From a virus (lineage: Duplodnaviria; Heunggongvirae; Uroviricota; Caudoviricetes): DNA of 4,208 nucleotides. The stretch lies in the IMG/VR virus record IMGVR_UViG_2690316348_000006; one strand, written 5' to 3'. Below the pieces are notes generated by a model. That model had not been told where the DNA came from. It did not search any database and saw only the letters and a list, made by a program, of their open reading frames with translations. Each line of letters opens with the position of its first letter. Within the stretch, counting starts at the first letter, position 1. The position numbers and the translations under genes were made by a program. This document shows, one piece after another, positions 1 through 4,208 of this stretch.

Positions 1-162
1 GTTGGGTTTTTCTGCTCATTATTAGCTCCTTCTGATGCCATTCTATTTCAGGAAGGAGTGTCCGTTAAACTCAGGCTACCTCAATCTAAATACTGATCTC
101 CCCCTCGCCAAAAACGAGCGTCTAAAAAATTCGAGCCGGAGGCTATTGAGCTGCCCGATTGG

Positions 163-432
163 TTGCCGGAAACACTCTGGCATGAGTGGGTCCGGTTCAG
201 ACAGGCATTGCGAAAACCGATTCGAACGGAGCAGGGCGCTAACGGGGCGATACGGGAACTGGAAAAATTCCGTCAGCAGGGTTTTACACCTGAGCAGGTG
301 ATTCGACACAGCATCGCCAATGAATACCAGGGCCTGTTCGCGCCGAAAGGTGTTCGGCCTGAGACGTTGCTCCGACAGGTTAACACCGTCTCGTTGCCGG
401 ACAGTGCGATCCCGCCAGGCTTCAGGGGGTAA
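163..432 (+). CDS. Replication initiation protein fragment (O-like / DnaT-like C-terminal domain), probably a 5'-truncated remnant. Frame is open from 97 to 432 but has no ATG; candidate starts are only CTG 151 or TTG 163.
   Basis: Frame-1 ORF ends at TAA 430-432, 6 nt before the DnaC-like start, the usual initiator-loader arrangement. The translation (LPDWLPETLWHEWVRFRQALRKPIRTEQG...FTPEQVIRHSIANEYQGLF) resembles, from memory, the conserved C-terminal domain of phage replication initiators. All three + frames carry stops within the first 96 nt (23-25, 33-35, 94-96), so no long gene enters from upstream. Confidence 0.45.
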   Translation: MPETLWHEWVRFRQALRKPIRTEQGANGAIRELEKFRQQGFTPEQVIRHSIANEYQGLFAPKGVRPETLLRQVNTVSLPDSAIPPGFRG

Positions 433-438
433 CGGACC

Positions 439-1185
439 ATGAAAAATATTGCGACAGGCGGCGTTCTGGAACGCATCCGCCGACTGACCCCGCCACATGT
501 AACCGCCCCATTCAGAACGGTAGCGGAGTGGCGCGAGTGGCAACTTGCTGAAGGCCAGAAACGTAGCGAGGAGATCAACCGCCTGAATCGCCAGTTGCGG
601 GTGGAAAAAATTCTGAATCGCTCAGGCATCCAGCCGTTGCACCGTAAATGCTCGTTTGCGAATTACCAGGTGCAGAACGACGGCCAGCGATACGCGTTAA
701 GCCAGGCGAAATCCATCGCCGATGAACTGATGACCGGGTGTACAAATTTTGCGTTCAGCGGAAAACCTGGTACCGGGAAGAACCACTTAGCGGCAGCTAT
801 CGGGAATCGCCTGCTGAAAGACGGTCAGACAGTGATTGTGGTTACCGTGGCTGATGTTATGAGCGCCCTGCACGCCAGCTATGACGACGGGCAGTCAGGC
901 GAAAAATTTTTGCGGGAGCTGTGCGAAGTGGATCTGCTGGTTCTTGATGAAATTGGCATTCAGCGCGAGACGAAAAACGAGCAGGTGGTGCTGCACCAGA
1001 TTGTTGATCGCCGGACAGCGTCGATGCGCAGCGTGGGGATGCTGACAAACCTGAACTATGAGGTGATGAAAACATTGCTCGGCGAGCGGGTGATGGATCG
1101 CATGGTCATGAACGGCGGGCGCTGGGTGAATTTTAACTGGGAGAGCTGGCGTCCGAATGTTAGCCATTCGAGGGTTGTTAAGTAG
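439..1185 (+). CDS. DnaC-family replicative helicase loader (phage replication protein, lambda P functional analog)
   Basis: 248-aa ORF with strong similarity, recalled from memory, to E. coli DnaC along its length. Walker A is FSGKPGTGKNHLAAAIG (about nt 754-804) and Walker B is LLVLDEIG; the C-terminal GERVMDRM motif is present. G-rich stretch upstream of the ATG; sits directly after the initiator fragment. Confidence 0.92.
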   Translation: MKNIATGGVLERIRRLTPPHVTAPFRTVAEWREWQLAEGQKRSEEINRLNRQLRVEKILNRSGIQPLHRKCSFANYQVQNDGQRYALSQAKSIADELMTGCTNFAFSGKPGTGKNHLAAAIGNRLLKDGQTVIVVTVADVMSALHASYDDGQSGEKFLRELCEVDLLVLDEIGIQRETKNEQVVLHQIVDRRTASMRSVGMLTNLNYEVMKTLLGERVMDRMVMNGGRWVNFNWESWRPNVSHSRVVK

Positions 1186-1199
1186 TTTCAGGAGGATTT

Positions 1200-1622
1200 A
1201 TGGCGAAACCTTTTACTCCCGAACAGCGGGAAGAACTGAAGACGCGAATTGTGGAACTCGTGCATCAGGACGGTCGGGTCACGATTCGGCAGTTGTCAGA
1301 TGAAACAGGTATCAGTCGTGCGTCTGTCGGTCGCTTATGCATAGAACTGGTCGCAAGTGGTGATGTATATAATTCTGGCTACGGCTTATTCCCGTCTGAA
1401 CAGGCTCGCAAGGACTGGCAAAGCGCCCGCAAAAAACTCTCGAGAGTAAAGGTGAGGAAACCGGTTGTTGTTGATCCGGACCTTATCTGGTCATTACCTG
1501 ACGGAGAAATACGCCGCTACGACAGGCGCCTGAATATAATCTGTCGCGAGTGCCGGAAGAGCGAAGCTATGCAGCGTGTACTGGCTTTCTATCAGGGTAA
1601 TTTTCAGGAGGCGATACTGTGA
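1200..1622 (+). CDS. Winged helix-turn-helix DNA-binding protein, function unknown
   Basis: 140-aa ORF with a strong SD (AGGAGG, 1189-1194) 5 nt upstream of the ATG. The N-terminus (RIVELVHQDGRVTIRQLSDETGISRASVGRLCIELVASGDV) has the pattern of a winged HTH. Stop TGA 1620-1622 abuts ATG 1623. Confidence 0.75.
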   Translation: MAKPFTPEQREELKTRIVELVHQDGRVTIRQLSDETGISRASVGRLCIELVASGDVYNSGYGLFPSEQARKDWQSARKKLSRVKVRKPVVVDPDLIWSLPDGEIRRYDRRLNIICRECRKSEAMQRVLAFYQGNFQEAIL

Positions 1623-1679
1623 ATGAAATTAGCTATCAGGCTTCAATTACCGCTGGCATTCGCATCAAAGGAGAGGAGC

Positions 1680-2036
1680 ATGGAAATAAAACCAGAAGAT
1701 GAGTTAAGCAATATTGTTTTATTTCCGGTAAAAGAGGATAACCCTCGTAATCAGGTTAATTTTCTTTATGAGCCATCGGAAAGACCATATTGCCATCACG
1801 CCTCTGTACGGGTTGACGAAAAAGAGCGTCAGGTCCGCTGTAAAATCTGCGGTGCGGTTGTGGAGCCGTTTGACTGGATGCTCTCTGTGGCAAAAAGAGA
1901 AACCAGACTGGCAGATGATGTAAGGCTATTGCGCCAGGAGGAACAGGAAAGGCGGAGAAATATAGAAAAGCTGATACAGATTGAGCGTAACGCGAAAGCG
2001 CGGATACGCAGGGCGACAAAATCCAGAACTGAATAA
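1680..2036 (+). CDS. Zn-ribbon plus coiled-coil protein, function unknown (alternative start ATG 1623 would add 19 aa)
   Basis: Open frame 1623-2036. ATG 1680 has a near-ideal SD (AGGAG, 1669-1673, 6-nt spacing). The protein has a C-x-HH ... C-x-x-C arrangement (PYCHHASV ... RCKICGAV) followed by a charged helical tail (RLLRQEEQERRRNIEKLIQIERNAKARIRR). Confidence 0.65.
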   Translation: MEIKPEDELSNIVLFPVKEDNPRNQVNFLYEPSERPYCHHASVRVDEKERQVRCKICGAVVEPFDWMLSVAKRETRLADDVRLLRQEEQERRRNIEKLIQIERNAKARIRRATKSRTE

Positions 2037-2183
2037 TTAAATTTAGCACTGTTAAAAATTTAATCCTTAACCGGAGGGATTTCTGCACCCTCAAATCATC
2101 AGGAGACCACCCGAAAGGGCGGGGAGCAGTCACACATCTGTTTCCGATAGCCCCGTTCTAATGCTACACTCTTTGATATTTTT

Positions 2184-2870
2184 ATGACCCCAATAAACAT
2201 ATTTATGACAGTTGCTGATTTCAAACGGCCCAAATTGGAGCTCCCAAACGGGGCAAACAAACTACTACTGCACTCTTGCTGTGCTCCATGTTCCGGTGAG
2301 GTGATGGAGGCGCTTCAGGCCTCGGGAATCGACTACACCATCTTTTTCTACAACCCGAACATTCATCCTCAGAAAGAGTATTTAATTCGTAAGGATGAGA
2401 ATATTCGCTTTGCTGAACAACACGGCGTGCCGTTTATTGATGCTGATTACGACACAGACAACTGGTTTGAACGAGCCAAAGGAATGGAATGGGAGCCCGA
2501 ACGAGGGATCCGTTGCACCATGTGTTTTGACATGCGTTTTGAGCGGACAGCGCTGTACGCCGCTGAAAATGGTTTCAGTGTGATCAGCAGTTCACTGGGC
2601 ATTTCACGCTGGAAAAATATGCAGCAGGTTAACGACTGTGGGCGGCGAGCCGTCGCGCATTATCCGGGCATGGTGTACTGGGATTATAACTGGCGCAAGC
2701 AGGGCGGCTCGTCCCGTATGATTGAAATCAGCAAGCGCGAAAAATTCTATCAGCAGGAATATTGTGGCTGTGTGTATTCTCTGCGCGATACCAATCTACA
2801 CCGCAAATCTCAGGGACGCCCTCTTATCAAAATTGGTCAACTCCACTACGGTAAAGAAGAGAAGGAGTGA
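2184..2870 (+). CDS. queH: QueH-like epoxyqueuosine reductase homolog (DUF208 family); alternative start ATG 2205
   Basis: 228-aa ORF with the N-terminal [11 protein letters not shown] motif (C32, C33, C36; nt 2277-2291) characteristic of QueH/DUF208 as recalled from memory, plus a later CxxC (C111, C114) and a CGC motif near the C-terminus. No obvious SD before either ATG. Preceded by a 147-nt intergenic gap after the replication-module operon. Confidence 0.8.
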
Positions 2871-2891
2871 TTTTATGGGGCACCTTTCTGA

Positions 2892-2921
2892 TTGATTTCA
2901 TATTGGCGAGGTAAGTAGAAT
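2892..2921 (+). promoter_or_regulatory. Putative sigma70 promoter of the hok/mok mRNA (-35 TTGATT 2892-2897, 18-nt spacer, -10 TAGAAT 2916-2921)
   Basis: Hexamers read directly from the sequence. The predicted start site (about 2927-2929) coincides with the 5' edge of the fold-back element at 2926-2939. Confidence 0.4.
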
Positions 2922-2925
2922 GACT

Positions 2926-2939
2926 GCGGGTGCTTGAGG
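2926..2939 (+). promoter_or_regulatory. hok mRNA 5' element (tac/fbi-like) complementary to the 3' end of the transcript
   Basis: GCGGGTGCTTGAGG (2926-2939) is complementary to CCTCAACGCACCCGC (3310-3324) with one bulged nucleotide, giving 14 bp. Next to it is a hairpin CTATCTGC(2940-2947)/GCAGATAG(2969-2976), analogous to the 5' hairpin of plasmid R1 hok mRNA as I recall it. Confidence 0.5.
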
Positions 2940-2976
2940 CTATCTGCTTCAGGCATGAACACCAAAAGGCAGATAG

Positions 2977-3047
2977 AGAAAAGCCCCAGTTAACATTACG
3001 CGTCCGGCAAGACGCTTAACATTAATCTGAGGCCAATTTCATGCTTT
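2977..3047 (-). ncRNA. sok: Sok-like antisense RNA (approximate boundaries)
   Basis: Minus-strand promoter candidate: -35 TTGCCT (complement of + 3079-3084), 17-bp spacer, -10 TAACCT (complement of + 3056-3061), start about 3047. The transcript would cover the mok SD (GAGG 3029-3032) and mok ATG (3041), contain a GCGTC/GACGC hairpin (3000-3015) and end in a U-rich tail (complement of AGAGAAAAG 2974-2982). Position matches the hok/sok paradigm; boundaries are inferred, not measured. Confidence 0.35.
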
Positions 3048-3253
3048 GCACATGTAGGTTAGCCTCTTACATGCCGAAAGGCAAGGAGAAGCAGGCTATG
3101 AAGCAGCAAAAGGCGATGTTAATCGCCCTGATCGTCATCTGTTTAACCGTCATAGTGACGGCACTGGTAACGAGGAAAGACCTCTGTGAGGTACGAATCC
3201 GAACCGGCCAGACGGAGGTCGCTGTCTTCGTAGACTACGAATCCAGGAAGTAA
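3041..3253 (+). CDS. mok: mok-like upstream reading frame, in frame with hok and starting 57 nt upstream (modulation of killing)
   Basis: ATG 3041 is preceded by GAGG (3029-3032) and shares the hok stop. The 57-nt in-frame extension mirrors how chromosomal mok/hok pairs are annotated in E. coli K-12, as I recall. Whether it is translated cannot be told from sequence. Confidence 0.4.
   Translation: MLCTCRLASYMPKGKEKQAMKQQKAMLIALIVICLTVIVTALVTRKDLCEVRIRTGQTEVAVFVDYESRK
3098..3253 (+). CDS. hok: Hok/Gef-family membrane toxin (type I toxin), 51 aa, closest to HokD/RelF-type
   Basis: Translation MKQQKAMLIALIVICLTVIVTALVTRKDLCEVRIRTGQTEVAVFVDYESRK matches, from memory, E. coli HokD almost exactly except for the last ~7 residues. 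SD AAGGAGAAG (3082-3090) sits 7 nt before the ATG. Has the single transmembrane helix and conserved Cys typical of Hok. Confidence 0.9.
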   Translation: MKQQKAMLIALIVICLTVIVTALVTRKDLCEVRIRTGQTEVAVFVDYESRK

Positions 3254-3309
3254 GAGTGACCGGGCGGGGAGCTGATCCCATCCCCGCCCACCTCTGATGT
3301 GTCAGGCAT

Positions 3310-3324
3310 CCTCAACGCACCCGC
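3310..3324 (+). promoter_or_regulatory. hok mRNA 3' fold-back-inhibition (fbi-like) element pairing with 2926-2939
   Basis: CCTCAACGCACCCGC is the reverse complement of the 5' element apart from one bulge. It lies between the hok stop and the terminator. CCCGC-type motifs recur at 3283-3290 and 3331-3338. Confidence 0.5.
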
Positions 3325-3330
3325 ACTTAA

Positions 3331-3376
3331 CCCGCCCATCGCTGTGATCTCTCAGCGTTTCGGCGGGTTTTTTGTT
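3331..3376 (+). terminator. Rho-independent terminator of the hok transcript
   Basis: Two-tier stem: CCCGCC (3331-3336) pairs with GGCGGG (3362-3367), and an inner CGCTG (3340-3344) pairs with CAGCG (3353-3357). Followed by TTTTTTGTTGTTT (3368-3380). Confidence 0.6.
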
Positions 3377-3393
3377 GTTTATTTCCGGTGAAT

Positions 3394-3421
3394 TTGATTC
3401 GCGCACCTTCGCAGATAGAAT
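3394..3421 (+). promoter_or_regulatory. Putative sigma70 promoter for the downstream ORFs (-35 TTGATT 3394-3399, 16-nt spacer, -10 TAGAAT 3416-3421)
   Basis: Hexamers read directly from the sequence. Lies just after the hok terminator and about 80 nt upstream of ATG 3503. The hexamers and the following GACT resemble the hok promoter at 2892-2925. Confidence 0.3.
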
Positions 3422-3502
3422 CGACTCACTTAAGTAGCGCGCAGGGAGAAGAGGGATGGACCCCGAACAGGGGAGAGCTATTTATCTGGAAGGATTCTGA
3501 AG

Positions 3503-3790
3503 ATGAAAATCGAAGAATTGCGTGAAATTTTTAGTGAAAATGGCCTCTATGCTGTGCGCGTTGAGAATGGAGCGATTGTCAGCCATTGCCGCATTAGATG
3601 TTTGCAATCTCAACAAAGGAAGAGCGGTGCTGTGTTATTTTATTTTTGTAATGGACTTCTGACGGACGGTTTTATTTTGCGTGAGGACGAATTTGTCACA
3701 TCATTACGGGTTTTGAAAGAGATTGGTTTTAAGGCTGGTTTTCTGCTTTTGCTGAAGAATAAACTCATCTACAATCTTGAGCAGGATTGA
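3503..3790 (+). CDS. Hypothetical protein, 95 aa, AT-rich orphan ORF
   Basis: ATG 3503 is preceded by GGAAGGA (3488-3494). Base composition is visibly more AT-rich than neighbouring genes. The C-terminal half is hydrophobic (GFKAGFLLLLKNKLIY). No family recognised. Confidence 0.5.
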   Translation: MKIEELREIFSENGLYAVRVENGAIVSHCRIRCLQSQQRKSGAVLFYFCNGLLTDGFILREDEFVTSLRVLKEIGFKAGFLLLLKNKLIYNLEQD

Positions 3791-3828
3791 ACTCCTGCTG
3801 TGTAACACCGTGCCACCGGAGAAAGCCG

Positions 3829-4182
3829 ATGGCACATATACAACTGGTCAAACAAACCTCTTCCGGATTACTTCTCCCGGCGACGCCGGAGAGTTGCGAT
3901 TTTCTGCATCAAATCAAAATAGGTGAGTGGATACACGCAGACTTTAAGCGTGTGTGTAACTACGCATTCCACAAGCGTTTTTTCAAACTCCTGCAACTGG
4001 GTTTCGATTACTGGACTCCGGTCGGTGGGGCGATCACGCCTCGCGAACGAAAACTGGTGTCCGGTTTCGTTGATTACCTGTGTGAATCAGTAGGCCGGGA
4101 ACATACGCCAGCTCTGAGCGAAGCCGCAGAGCAATTGAGGTGTACTGGCAATAGCGGACACTACCATTTGTTCTTTTTTTAA
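3829..4182 (+). CDS. Conserved lambdoid nin-region protein, probably YbcN/DUF1367-like, apparently C-terminally short (117 aa)
   Basis: ATG 3829 is preceded by GGAGAAA (3817-3823); the ORF-track start at 3787 is a TTG and is less likely. The motif block HADFKRVCNYAFHKRFFKLLQLGFDYWTPVGGAITPRERKLV resembles, from memory, the N-terminal region of YbcN-like proteins. The ORF ends in an atypical tail (RCTGNSGHYHLFFF) 26 nt before the window edge. Confidence 0.55.
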   Translation: MAHIQLVKQTSSGLLLPATPESCDFLHQIKIGEWIHADFKRVCNYAFHKRFFKLLQLGFDYWTPVGGAITPRERKLVSGFVDYLCESVGREHTPALSEAAEQLRCTGNSGHYHLFFF

Positions 4183-4208
4183 GCAGCCATCTGATGATAT
4201 TTTTCCCT

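Follow-up and report, generated by a model that had tools for sequence, protein, structure and literature searches.

A Ren-type DUF977 gene and a zinc-knuckle/long-helix cassette behind the helicase loader gene of a Rac-like prophage: probably two independent early genes

The window considered here, that is, the whole 4,208-nt stretch of DNA that was analysed, comes from a virus of the Caudoviricetes (IMG/VR record IMGVR_UViG_2690316348_000006). It represents a degraded Rac-like lambdoid prophage with an ordinary lambdoid early-region arrangement, and all features given below with coordinates lie on the + strand. A DnaC-like helicase loader gene of the ydaV type occupies positions 439–1185. 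Its product matches IstB_IS21 (1.1e-19) and Bac_DnaA (2.5e-8) in Pfam, belongs with the DnaC-like helicase loaders of phrog_50 (9.8e-83), and is labelled 'ydaV ATP-binding protein' in RefSeq. As an earlier note on this DNA had described, two open reading frames follow this gene; they are given here as ORF1 (1200–1622) and, with a start revised below, ORF2 (1680–2036). Both are real genes, since homologues are kept across genera with invariant functional residues. The gap between ydaV and ORF1 is only 14 nt and contains the Shine-Dalgarno sequence of ORF1, AGGAGG (1190–1195), 4 nt before the ATG at 1200. No promoter or terminator was detected on the + strand between positions 1100 and 2300. Because none separates the loader gene from ORF1, the latter presumably shares a transcript with the replication genes. 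The link to the replication genes that had been proposed for ORF1 is supported. A hok/sok toxin–antitoxin locus lies 0.9 kb downstream.

ORF1 encodes a protein of 140 amino acids that matches the Pfam family DUF977 (PF06163) along its entire profile (positions 1–134 of 134; 1.1e-33; 116.5 bits, cutoff 22.1 bits). The corresponding RefSeq entry is WP_001118169, 'DUF977 family protein', and ORF1 is 74–77% identical to genes annotated as LygF in Rac-SA53, mEp460, POCJ13 and others. A literature search for DUF977 and LygF returned nothing functional, and LygF was found as a gene name only. The length and the winged helix-turn-helix that had been read from the sequence earlier both hold. Residues 1–82 (1200–1445) match HTH_24 (7e-6), HTH_IclR (6e-5) and MarR_2 (2e-4) in Pfam, and the confident AF2 model contains helices at residues 7–24, 29–36 and 40–53, a wing, and a further helix at 67–82 (pLDDT 78–92 for these elements, and about 87–92 for residues 1–82). 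Foldseek searches of the PDB gave generic winged-helix matches of the MarR, IclR and MntR kinds, of which the best had an E-value of 8.5e-3 and none fell below 0.001. Across 61 loci, DNA identity is 0.63–0.78 over this N-terminal part versus 0.89–0.97 downstream. The variable, allele-specific part comprises the first ~50 codons, with a mosaic breakpoint at about codon 50.

The earlier note had seen no match to the canonical lambda ren or nin proteins. For ORF1 this proved wrong, given its PHROG family, a shared motif and its position after the loader gene. The family phrog_142, 'Ren-like exclusion protein', is matched by ORF1 (2.7e-44, profile positions 1–115 of 116), by lambda Ren itself (NP_040633; 1.6e-41, positions 11–110 of 116) and by Salmonella DUF977 (1.4e-30). 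Towards the C-terminus, residues 112–131 of ORF1 (1533–1592) carry the Ren-type motif NIICRECRKSEAMQRVLAFY, which is identical to residues 73–92 of lambda Ren at 12 of 20 positions (BLASTP, E 3e-7). The DUF977 profile likewise aligns with Ren over 23 columns in hhalign (88.6% probability, E 2.6e-6). Beyond this motif of 20–23 residues, pairwise similarity between ORF1 and Ren is not significant in either BLASTP or hhalign, and lambda Ren gives no match to Pfam DUF977. On the strength of PHROG clustering, the motif and gene position, ORF1 is a homologue of lambda Ren and its Rac-type counterpart. In lambda, ren is carried on the pR transcript together with O and P and has been described as 'likely involved in DNA replication', while a two-hybrid assay detected interaction of Ren with the Rex proteins (Thomason et al., bioRxiv 10.1101/2021.04.19.439022).

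At the junction of the two genes, the TGA of ORF1 (1620–1622) directly abuts an ATG at 1623, as was noted before, and the frame opened by this ATG extends to 2036 (137 aa). ORF2 most likely begins not with this codon but with the ATG at 1680, which gives a protein of 118 aa. The strong Shine-Dalgarno sequence remarked on at 1669–1673 is indeed present (AGGAG) and is repeated at 1674–1678, so that a tandem AGGAG AGGAG (1669–1678) serves ATG 1680. RefSeq places the start at 1680, this methionine is the first aligned residue in both the PHROG and the homologue alignments, and the left boundary of the cassette described below, ~1641, is downstream of 1623. The 57-nt spacer between the lone TGA and the start (1623–1679) is open and in frame with both genes, and it is probably an untranslated leader that carries the ORF2 Shine-Dalgarno sequence.

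This geometry could also suggest that the lone in-frame TGA is read through at low frequency, producing a programmed DUF977–ORF2 fusion protein. ORF1, the spacer and ORF2 do share one frame with a single stop, and fused versions of 278 aa (P0375–P0378) occur, though rarely, in several contigs. These variants, however, carry tryptophan or arginine in place of the TGA, and are thus stop-codon substitutions and not read-through signals. A run of 19 stop-free codons would, by our calculation, arise by chance in about 40% of cases ((61/64)^19), and conservation of the frame is uninformative because the block is 96–97% identical across loci. Furthermore, ORF2 has its own strong Shine-Dalgarno sequence and a conserved methionine start, and elsewhere it is present without DUF977. 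Programmed read-through is accordingly regarded as very improbable.

ORF2 falls within PHROG 1621, which it matches along its full length (1.8e-55, profile positions 1–120 of 134), with further matches to phrog_8538 (4e-11) and phrog_4865 (4e-9). It is entered in RefSeq as WP_001343130, 'hypothetical protein', and shows 98% identity both to gp17 of ArgO145 and to proteins from several phages that convert to Stx2a. In addition to 148 homologues, an exhaustive profile search recovered at least 1590 cluster representatives (50% identity) at E ≤ 1e-3, and the family extends from enterobacteria as far as GC-rich phages that are probably actinobacterial. A species-genome scan with the single peptide pattern KLIQIERN yielded 12 loci, and a further word-indexed protein search with the distant set A2 mostly returned close relatives again. 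Pfam, NCBIfam and PADLOC contain no family for ORF2, and Pfam searches of 30 distant relatives produced scattered coiled-coil noise only. A sequence-profile search of the PDB found no solved structure for the family, and the match to the EzrA coiled coil that it returned is spurious (E 0.25). A literature search for PHROG 1621 proteins found nothing.

The protein has three conserved parts. The first is an N-terminal peptide, ELSNIVLFP (residues 8–16; 1701–1727). In alignment A1, E6, L9, F15 and P16 are invariant and E8 and N11 nearly so, and the motif [NK]-[VIL]-[VIL]-x-[FL]-P is kept in most of the distant relatives. This peptide lies in predicted disorder, with pLDDT below 50 at residues 1–4, 12–18 and 26–34. 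The second part is a putative zinc knuckle, C38-x-H40 ... C54-x-x-C57, followed by a (D/E)PFD turn (1791–1850). All four ligands are invariant in A1; in A2 the three cysteines are invariant and H40 is present in at least 90% of sequences. The AF2 model places two beta-hairpins here, at 43–46 and 51–54. The earlier note had proposed a C-x-HH ... CxxC zinc site, of which the Cys/His ligands stand, but the pattern is CxH ... CxxC, as H39 in C38-H39-H40 is not an invariant ligand.

The third part is a single long helix (residues 63–117; 1866–2030), in line with the highly charged helical C-terminus that had been noticed, and is modelled with a pLDDT of 87–96 at residues 81–110. It contains the near-invariant stretch LRxEExxRRxNIEKLIQIERNAKARIR, with invariant columns between L84 and R110 in A1 and L98, E102, N104, K106 and R108 conserved family-wide. 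Its hydrophobic residues follow a heptad-like pattern, in a register that is our own reading of the sequence. Any likeness of the helix to a bZIP or to an N-protein-like arginine-rich motif is a visual impression with no tool support and is not claimed. The AF2 model as a whole is of moderate quality (pLDDT 70.7, pTM 0.35), and Foldseek searches with it against the PDB and BFVD returned nothing below an E-value of 0.001. The Ead/Ea22 domain (PF13935) has no match in ORF2 alone. It is found in P0002 and P0122, where an added Ea22-like N-terminus is joined at ORF2 residue 2; in ArgO145, the Ea22-like gene and the ORF2 homologue are separate coding sequences.

The distribution of ORF2 is that of a cassette in a variable slot. 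In loci that carry DUF977 only, homology to the window stops at 1611–1640 and restarts at 2017–2058, which places the presence/absence cassette, comprising the Shine-Dalgarno sequence and the coding sequence, at approximately 1641–2016. In nine distinct loci ORF2 is cleanly missing as one gene-sized piece, with 20–26 bp between the flanks. Other DUF977-only loci hold 522–611 bp of different cargo, such as a DNA methyltransferase (phrog_954, 2.7e-87) or a DUF4406-like protein (phrog_355, 5.5e-47), and elsewhere the slot contains other small genes or is empty. The right flank of the slot (2017–2122) is kept with or without ORF2, at 84–92% identity in 17 of 22 distinct DUF977-only loci (BLASTN). 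A tR2-like terminator or structured RNA within this flank was considered and rejected, as there is no + strand terminator or promoter and the RNA fold has a z-score of −0.79. Many prophages that are otherwise alike lack ORF2, which is therefore dispensable.

The two genes had been proposed earlier to form a coupled pair or module, an idea that breaks down when their co-occurrence is surveyed. Among 79 close loci anchored on DUF977, ORF2 is adjacent in 46 and absent in 25. When near-identical copies of ORF2 are taken as the anchor (n = 79), DUF977 is directly upstream in 49 and within 3.2 kb in 23 more. The phages vB_EcoS-640R1 and vB_EcoS-813R8 have the two side by side. E. coli genomes contain 5014 DUF977 places versus 2134 ORF2 places (2.3 to 1), and at the level of complete E. 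coli genomes DUF977/'LygF' occurs in two-thirds and ORF2 in 31%. Copies of ORF2 that are 93–100% identical (median 97) are paired with DUF977 copies at 55–100% identity (median 77), and the Spearman correlation of 0.49 between the two identities arises from shared mosaic blocks. One such block, with 93–97% DNA identity, runs from about codon 54 of DUF977 to the ORF2 stop, and thus includes the C-terminal two-thirds of DUF977 together with ORF2. Of the diverged elements, Salmonella alone retains DUF977, 2.2 kb upstream of ORF2. More distantly, a Ren/DUF977-like gene is absent within 6–8 kb in all 12 informative diverged ORF2 loci (from Serratia, Yersinia, Erwinia, Pantoea, Photorhabdus and a metagenome contig), and ArgO145 and a Klebsiella phage have none either. 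ORF1 and ORF2 are therefore no dedicated pair, and their pairing is local to E. coli/Shigella prophages.

A functional two-protein unit, for example of a DNA-binding and a zinc-ribbon/coiled-coil subunit acting as a replication accessory or regulator, could still exist, in the E. coli/Shigella/Salmonella lineage at any rate. Such a unit would fit the frequent adjacency seen from either anchor, the 93–97% block, the single frame with one stop codon and its natural 278-aa fusions, the presence of both genes in one Salmonella region, and the lack of a promoter or terminator between them. Nevertheless, behind similar DUF977 genes ORF2 is cleanly absent or swapped for unrelated cargo, DUF977 copies are in clear excess in E. 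coli, and a single ORF2 allele is combined with DUF977 alleles of 55% to 100% identity. Inserted genes often part the two, and in six other genera, in ArgO145 and in the Klebsiella phage, the cro-to-Q region contains no Ren/DUF977-like gene. Nor do fused proteins help, since in other chimeras the partner of ORF2 is either unrelated or a DUF977 placed in reversed order. The DUF977–ORF2 and Ea22–ORF2 'fusions' were rejected as Rosetta-stone evidence on these grounds, together with their abrupt junctions and, in the former, the replaced stop codon. Those with unrelated partners or reversed order (P0040/P0043, P0015, P0112, P0120 and P0388) look like recombination or assembly chimeras. A two-protein unit is thus judged unlikely, although a functional interaction within the E. 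coli/Shigella lineage may exist because of the frequent linkage and the shared 93–97% block.

Elsewhere, ORF2 homologues occupy several different positions. In the phages of Serratia, Yersinia, Erwinia and Klebsiella they are found in the interval from NinG/RusA to Q, where no Ren-like gene is close by, and in Serratia, Yersinia, Klebsiella and the metagenome contig the gene order is RusA/NinG/NinH, ORF2, YlcG, Q. In Stx phages such as ArgO145 the homologue is in the ea22 region, and in a GC-rich contig it adjoins TerL. No Ren-like gene was found at the RusA/NinG–Q, ea22 or TerL-adjacent loci.

These contexts bear on what ORF2 might do. One explanation makes ORF2, by itself or together with ORF1, a prophage defence or superinfection-exclusion determinant that shields the lysogen from other phages. 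Its slot is hypervariable and accessory, as are those of many prophage defence genes, it is very widespread among complete E. coli genomes (31%), and the hok/sok locus is close downstream. The PHROG category of the Ren-like family, 'moron, auxiliary metabolic gene and host takeover', would also be compatible with such a role. However, a search of PADLOC-DB 2.0 gave no match for ORF2 and, for ORF1, only weak HTH-level matches to Csa3/CARF regulators (E ≥ 0.0017), so that neither protein is matched as a defence component. Both genes belong to the early rightward operon, whose expression is repressed in a lysogen, and no promoter of their own was detected. ORF2 has no enzymatic or membrane domain of the kind typical of effectors, and the places it takes in other phages, next to the terminase gene or in the ninG–Q interval, are lytically expressed. 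As for ORF1, Ren is said to have been characterised genetically by Toothman and Herskowitz in 1980 as a means of escape from exclusion, with no exclusion function of its own. A defence role is consequently considered improbable.

ORF2 might otherwise be a nucleic-acid-binding regulator, that is, a dimeric zinc-ribbon/basic-helix protein acting on DNA, RNA or RNA polymerase and tuning the passage from delayed-early to late expression. Its closest, though weak, resemblance is to the TFIIB-type zinc ribbon, which contacts RNA polymerase. The C-terminal helix carries basic charge and hardly varies on any face, and in many phages only ylcG separates the ORF2 homologue from the gene for the Q antiterminator. 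The resemblance itself, however, is slight: Zn_Ribbon_TF (PF08271) scores 21.5 bits against a gathering threshold of 29 bits and reaches E ≤ 0.01 in only 4 of 30 family members, while the Foldseek alignment to the TFIIB zinc ribbon 1pft has an E-value of 0.14 (probability 0.96, rmsd 1.8 Å) over 27 columns, in a region of the model with pLDDT of about 71–74. In addition, not all homologues lie next to Q, the gene is dispensable and missing from many similar prophages, and no DNA or RNA element was seen to recur in its neighbourhood. Regulation of this kind is rather unlikely.

The arrangement is probably best explained by two independent early genes that form no two-gene system: a Ren-type ORF1, and an ORF2 that forms an accessory cassette complete in itself. 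Ren belongs to the replication module as a non-essential accessory, through which the replicating phage escapes Rex-type exclusion; this escape is what defines ren genetically. Judged by homology and position, ORF1 would act as Ren does, as a replication-module accessory that permits escape from Rex-type exclusion. Its C-terminal motif may make protein contacts and its winged helix may provide specificity for DNA or for a partner. The winged helix varies in sequence by allele, as do the upstream replication genes, with the C-terminal part conserved. To our knowledge, the mechanism of Ren has been undefined since 1980, and because of this, to say that ORF1 works like Ren has little mechanistic content.

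ORF2, for its part, is a cassette with its own ribosome-binding site in the hypervariable slot behind DUF977. Its predicted layout is a disordered N-terminal peptide (ELSNVVxFP), a CxH...CxxC knuckle, and an amphipathic helix of 55 residues whose basic end is almost invariant. It could form a coiled-coil homodimer and work as a stand-alone, zinc-dependent adaptor that needs no DUF977 partner. Early in lytic growth it may bind a broadly conserved target, either a nucleic acid or a protein of the host, in the manner of host-takeover or counter-defence proteins. ORF2 is swappable and its slots are shared with a DNA methyltransferase, and it is therefore a possible member of a new class of host-takeover or counter-defence factor. 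More specifically, the conserved N-terminal short linear motif, the CHCC knuckle and the coiled-coil helix with its invariant E-x-N-x-K-x-R might mark a family directed at one conserved target. Such a family would perhaps be a new small host-takeover/counter-defence class and possibly cooperate with the Ren-like C-terminal half in E. coli phages, a suggestion that is put forward only tentatively.

Genes annotated as DUF977 or 'LygF' may now be read as Rac-type equivalents of ren, which offers a handle on Ren itself. The breakpoint within DUF977 divides an allele-specific winged helix from a conserved half that bears the Ren motif. The remaining interest attaches to the zinc-knuckle/long-helix family, which is very large and is carried by many temperate phages, including Shiga-toxin phages. 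Since the presence or absence of ORF2 is a gene-sized polymorphism, naturally isogenic comparisons are available for the study of its function.

Compared with known systems, both proteins are ordinary members of named families. ORF1 does not differ in substance from Pfam DUF977 and the 'LygF' proteins of Salmonella Enteritidis and Rac-type phages, and ORF2 does not differ from PHROG 1621 and the related PHROGs 8538 and 4865. In the Rac prophage of E. coli K-12, the gene after ydaV is ydaW, whose product also has an N-terminal HTH. YdaW, however, belongs to DUF1627/phrog_630, whereas ORF1 is DUF977, and Salmonella prophages carry DUF1627 and DUF977 as separate genes, one after the other. The ydaW gene has been reported to block retron-Sen2 RcaT (bioRxiv 10.1101/2020.06.22.160242). 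This activity is not transferable to ORF1, because YdaW belongs to the other family, and a retron-blocker phenotype for ORF1 was rejected.

The TFIIB-type zinc ribbon (PF08271; 1pft) shares with the predicted form of ORF2 a small two-hairpin knuckle with four ligands and is its best resemblance in both Pfam and Foldseek. The ligands are C4 in the former and CHCC in the latter, and the ribbon is followed by cyclin folds in TFIIB but by one 55-residue helix in ORF2. As for lambda Ren, it is shorter than ORF1 (96 versus 140 aa), the extra ~44 residues of ORF1 (about residues 84–113) lying between winged helix and motif, and the lambda loader is P, while that upstream of ORF1 is of the DnaC/IstB type. 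The two proteins nevertheless have in common the C-terminal motif ECRxSxAMxRVLAxY and an N-terminal MarR-like winged helix, which in Ren is matched by phrog_1687 MarR (1.5e-10) and weakly by Pfam HTH families. Each gene also lies directly 3' of a helicase-loader gene, with the stop of P and the start of ren overlapping in lambda.

The window holds part of a Rac-like lambdoid E. coli/Shigella prophage. From 84 to 4135 it matches E. coli FDAARGOS_943 at 99.5% identity, and the remainder (1-83 and 4136-4208) consists of IS600 ends that are 100% identical to IS600 copies in NZ_CP065615. These insertions truncate an O-like replication gene at 84 and a DUF1367/NinB-like gene at 4135, leaving a degraded prophage remnant flanked by IS600 on both sides. 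Such remnants are typical of Shigella-like genomes. The reference record carries, in order, a cI-like repressor, cro, ydaT, a 260-aa 'hypothetical' protein with a C-terminal match to O-like/primosomal replication PHROGs, ydaV (the DnaC-like loader), the DUF977 gene (ORF1, 1200-1622), a 118-aa hypothetical protein (ORF2, 1680-2036), queH, hokD, a 95-aa protein and DUF1367 (NinB-like), with further genes beyond. No sigma-70-like promoter or intrinsic terminator was detected on the + strand between 1100 and 2300, so ORF1 and ORF2 presumably share the early rightward transcript of the replication genes.

The earlier note had proposed that ORF1 and ORF2 form an uncharacterised gene pair coupled to replication, and the surveys do not support such a module. 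In the 80 viral contigs whose DUF977 is closest, ORF2 lies directly downstream in 46 loci and 0.9-3.5 kb away in 8, and is absent from 25 (one locus was too short to tell). When 80 contigs carrying ORF2 at >=97% identity were surveyed, DUF977 was directly upstream in 49, 0.7-3.2 kb upstream and separated by inserted genes in 23, and absent within 6 kb in seven, one again being too short. Where the two are adjacent, identity to the window is 93-100% for ORF2 but 55-100% for DUF977. Complete E. coli genomes contain ORF2 at 2134 places (1679 genomes) and DUF977 at 5014 places (3617 genomes); the contiguous pair occurs at high coverage in only 240. Megablast covers at least 80% of the DUF977 gene in only 87 of the 3617 genomes with a match.

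ORF2 behaves as a cassette (~1641-2016) in a variable slot behind DUF977. In the 22 distinct loci with DUF977 only, homology to the window ends at 1611-1640, and in 17 of these it resumes at 2017-2058; nine have just 20-26 bp between the flanks, and the other eight have the gap filled by a 522-611 bp segment. Where ORF2 is missing, DUF977 is followed by, among others, genes for a DNA methyltransferase (phrog_954) and a DUF4406/nucleoside-deoxyribosyltransferase-like protein (phrog_355), by Ead/Ea22-like genes, and by genes for small proteins of unknown function. Just past ORF2, 65-105 bp of the segment 2017-2122 are kept at 84-92% in 17 of 22 distinct loci lacking ORF2 or carrying other cargo. 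This segment, in which no promoter, terminator or significant/stable RNA structure was detected, acts as the right-hand anchor of the slot. Directly after the slot, within the prophage early region, lies the gene for epoxyqueuosine reductase QueH (2184-2870, RefSeq start at 2205; Pfam 1.9e-65; phrog_3217), which modifies tRNA and is carried by the phage as cargo. A complete hok/sok type I toxin–antitoxin locus (2928-3253), comprising sok (2928-3103; RF01794, 117 bits) and hokD (3098-3253; Pfam HOK_GEF, 4.3e-23), follows 0.9 kb downstream of ORF2, and many related loci also carry hok homologues downstream of ORF2. Between hokD and the DUF1367 gene is the 95-aa ORF, hypothetical in RefSeq (3503-3790; phrog_340, unknown function, 6e-20).

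A second discontinuity falls inside ORF1. Across 61 distinct loci, the DnaC gene and the DUF977 N-terminus are variable in DNA identity, which is 89-97% from ~1360 to ~2080 and then drops sharply. The mosaic breakpoint at 1340-1360 (~codon 47-54), where cross-locus identity is 0.45-0.78 upstream and 0.89-0.97 downstream, coincides with the end of the winged-helix domain.

Inspection of the sequence confirmed the two ORFs and their abutting stop and start codons (1620-1625), as well as the AGGAG motif (1669-1673), the Cys/His ligands and the charged helix. The second ORF, previously begun at 1623 (137 aa), most likely starts instead at ATG 1680 (118 aa), since RefSeq places the start there, the PHROG profile and all cross-genus homologues begin at that Met, a tandem AGGAG lies just upstream, and the cassette edge at ~1641 falls inside the supposed 137-aa ORF. 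A single TGA divides ORF1 from a 57-nt spacer and ORF2, all in one reading frame (1620-1680). Four 278-aa database proteins (P0375-P0378) fuse DUF977, spacer and ORF2 exactly, with Trp or Arg in place of the stop and GTG in place of ATG 1623. A perfect 11-nt inverted repeat, GGAAATAAAAC ... GTTTTATTTCC (1682-1692 / 1716-1726; arms 23 nt apart; chance occurrence in that region roughly estimated at ~6%), begins on the final base of the ORF2 ATG and could fold the mRNA into a hairpin where translation starts. Its first arm codes for EIKP, a stretch absent from the homologous proteins of Serratia and Yersinia.

ORF2 falls in PHROG 1621 (1.8e-55), a catalogued family with no assigned function, and matched no family in Pfam, NCBIfam or PADLOC. 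A word-indexed search returned 148 relatives, almost all from Enterobacterales, and an exhaustive profile search 1590 cluster representatives at E<=1e-3, including GC-rich versions of 175-190 aa. The family conserves an N-terminal peptide, ELSNVVxFP (NVVPFPR in GC-rich forms), the invariant putative metal ligands C38-x-H40 ... C54-x-x-C57, a DPFD turn, and helix residues L98, E102, N104, K106 and R108, with L84 to R110 almost invariant within Enterobacterales. In the AF2 model (pLDDT 70.7) the N-terminus is disordered and is followed by two short hairpins and a single helix (63-117). A PDB sequence search and BFVD returned nothing, and a literature search found no paper mentioning the family. 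The sole structural resemblance is to the TFIIB zinc ribbon (E 0.14 over 27 columns), and a transcription or nucleic-acid regulator is possible. A defence role is also possible. Tentatively, ORF2 would work independently as a coiled-coil adaptor, stabilised by zinc and probably dimeric, whose target, bound early in the lytic cycle, might be a conserved host protein or nucleic acid.

Beyond Escherichia/Shigella, the nin region of Serratia, Yersinia, a metagenomic contig and a Klebsiella phage carries the ORF2 homologue at its distal end, in the order RusA/NinG/NinH, ORF2, a small YlcG-like gene, Q. In Stx phage ArgO145 the homologue is gp17, beside Ead/Ea22-like genes in the early-left accessory region. 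The setting on GC-rich phage contigs differs markedly from the enterobacterial ones and is that of a packaging region: on two of them (the P0387 contig, JGI 3300067032; L175, 872-2265) 186-aa relatives sit two genes behind a DUF5681 gene, and in one case the relative shares 4 bp with the start of the large-terminase gene. PHROG scan, phmmer and a joint HMM found no Ren/DUF977-like ORF in any of these loci; the sole exception is Salmonella, with DUF977 2.2 kb upstream of ORF2. ORF2 may still be a lineage-specific partner of the DUF977 C-terminus. Given cassette loss or replacement and these diverged loci, the adjacency in the window is, as judged from sequence comparison, a lineage-specific mosaic block and not a conserved module. 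Family memberships, architecture, conserved residues, cassette behaviour and the lack of conserved linkage are established; the locus is an ordinary arrangement, and what remains of interest is how large and well conserved the ORF2 family is, and that DUF977 has a mosaic break within it.

YdaW, commonly cited as the product of the gene following ydaV, stands in K-12 where ORF1 stands here, but is a different protein (DUF1627/phrog_630, not DUF977; K-12 Rac locus 3753-4313). In Salmonella prophages, DUF1627 and DUF977 are two successive genes (L176/L177, 2676-3778), and K-12 Rac has apparently lost DUF977 along with the whole stretch as far as rzpR. The report that ydaW blocks a retron toxin (bioRxiv 10.1101/2020.06.22.160242) consequently does not apply to ORF1.

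ORF1 instead belongs to a known family with a named lambda homologue. It matches the DUF977 model over its full length (116.5 bits; cutoff 22.1), and phage records name such proteins 'LygF' or 'Ren-like exclusion protein'. AF2 modelled residues 1-82 confidently and 84-140 poorly, and Foldseek returned only generic wHTH regulators. Lambda Ren is transcribed from pR, is 'likely involved in DNA replication' and contacts Rex proteins in a two-hybrid assay (bioRxiv 10.1101/2021.04.19.439022); according to the literature, P-lethality and replicative killing do not need it. ORF1 would act similarly: not itself essential, it would accompany the replication module and counter Rex-type exclusion, with an allele-specific winged helix and a conserved C-terminal interaction motif. 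The suggestion that neither protein resembles ren/nin products thus fails for ORF1: like lambda Ren, it matches PHROG 142 nearly end to end (2.7e-44; Ren, 1.6e-41), carries the C-terminal motif NxxxxECRxSxAMxRVLAxY (BLASTP E 3e-7; hhalign 88.6%), has an N-terminal MarR-like winged helix, and is encoded directly after its helicase-loader gene.
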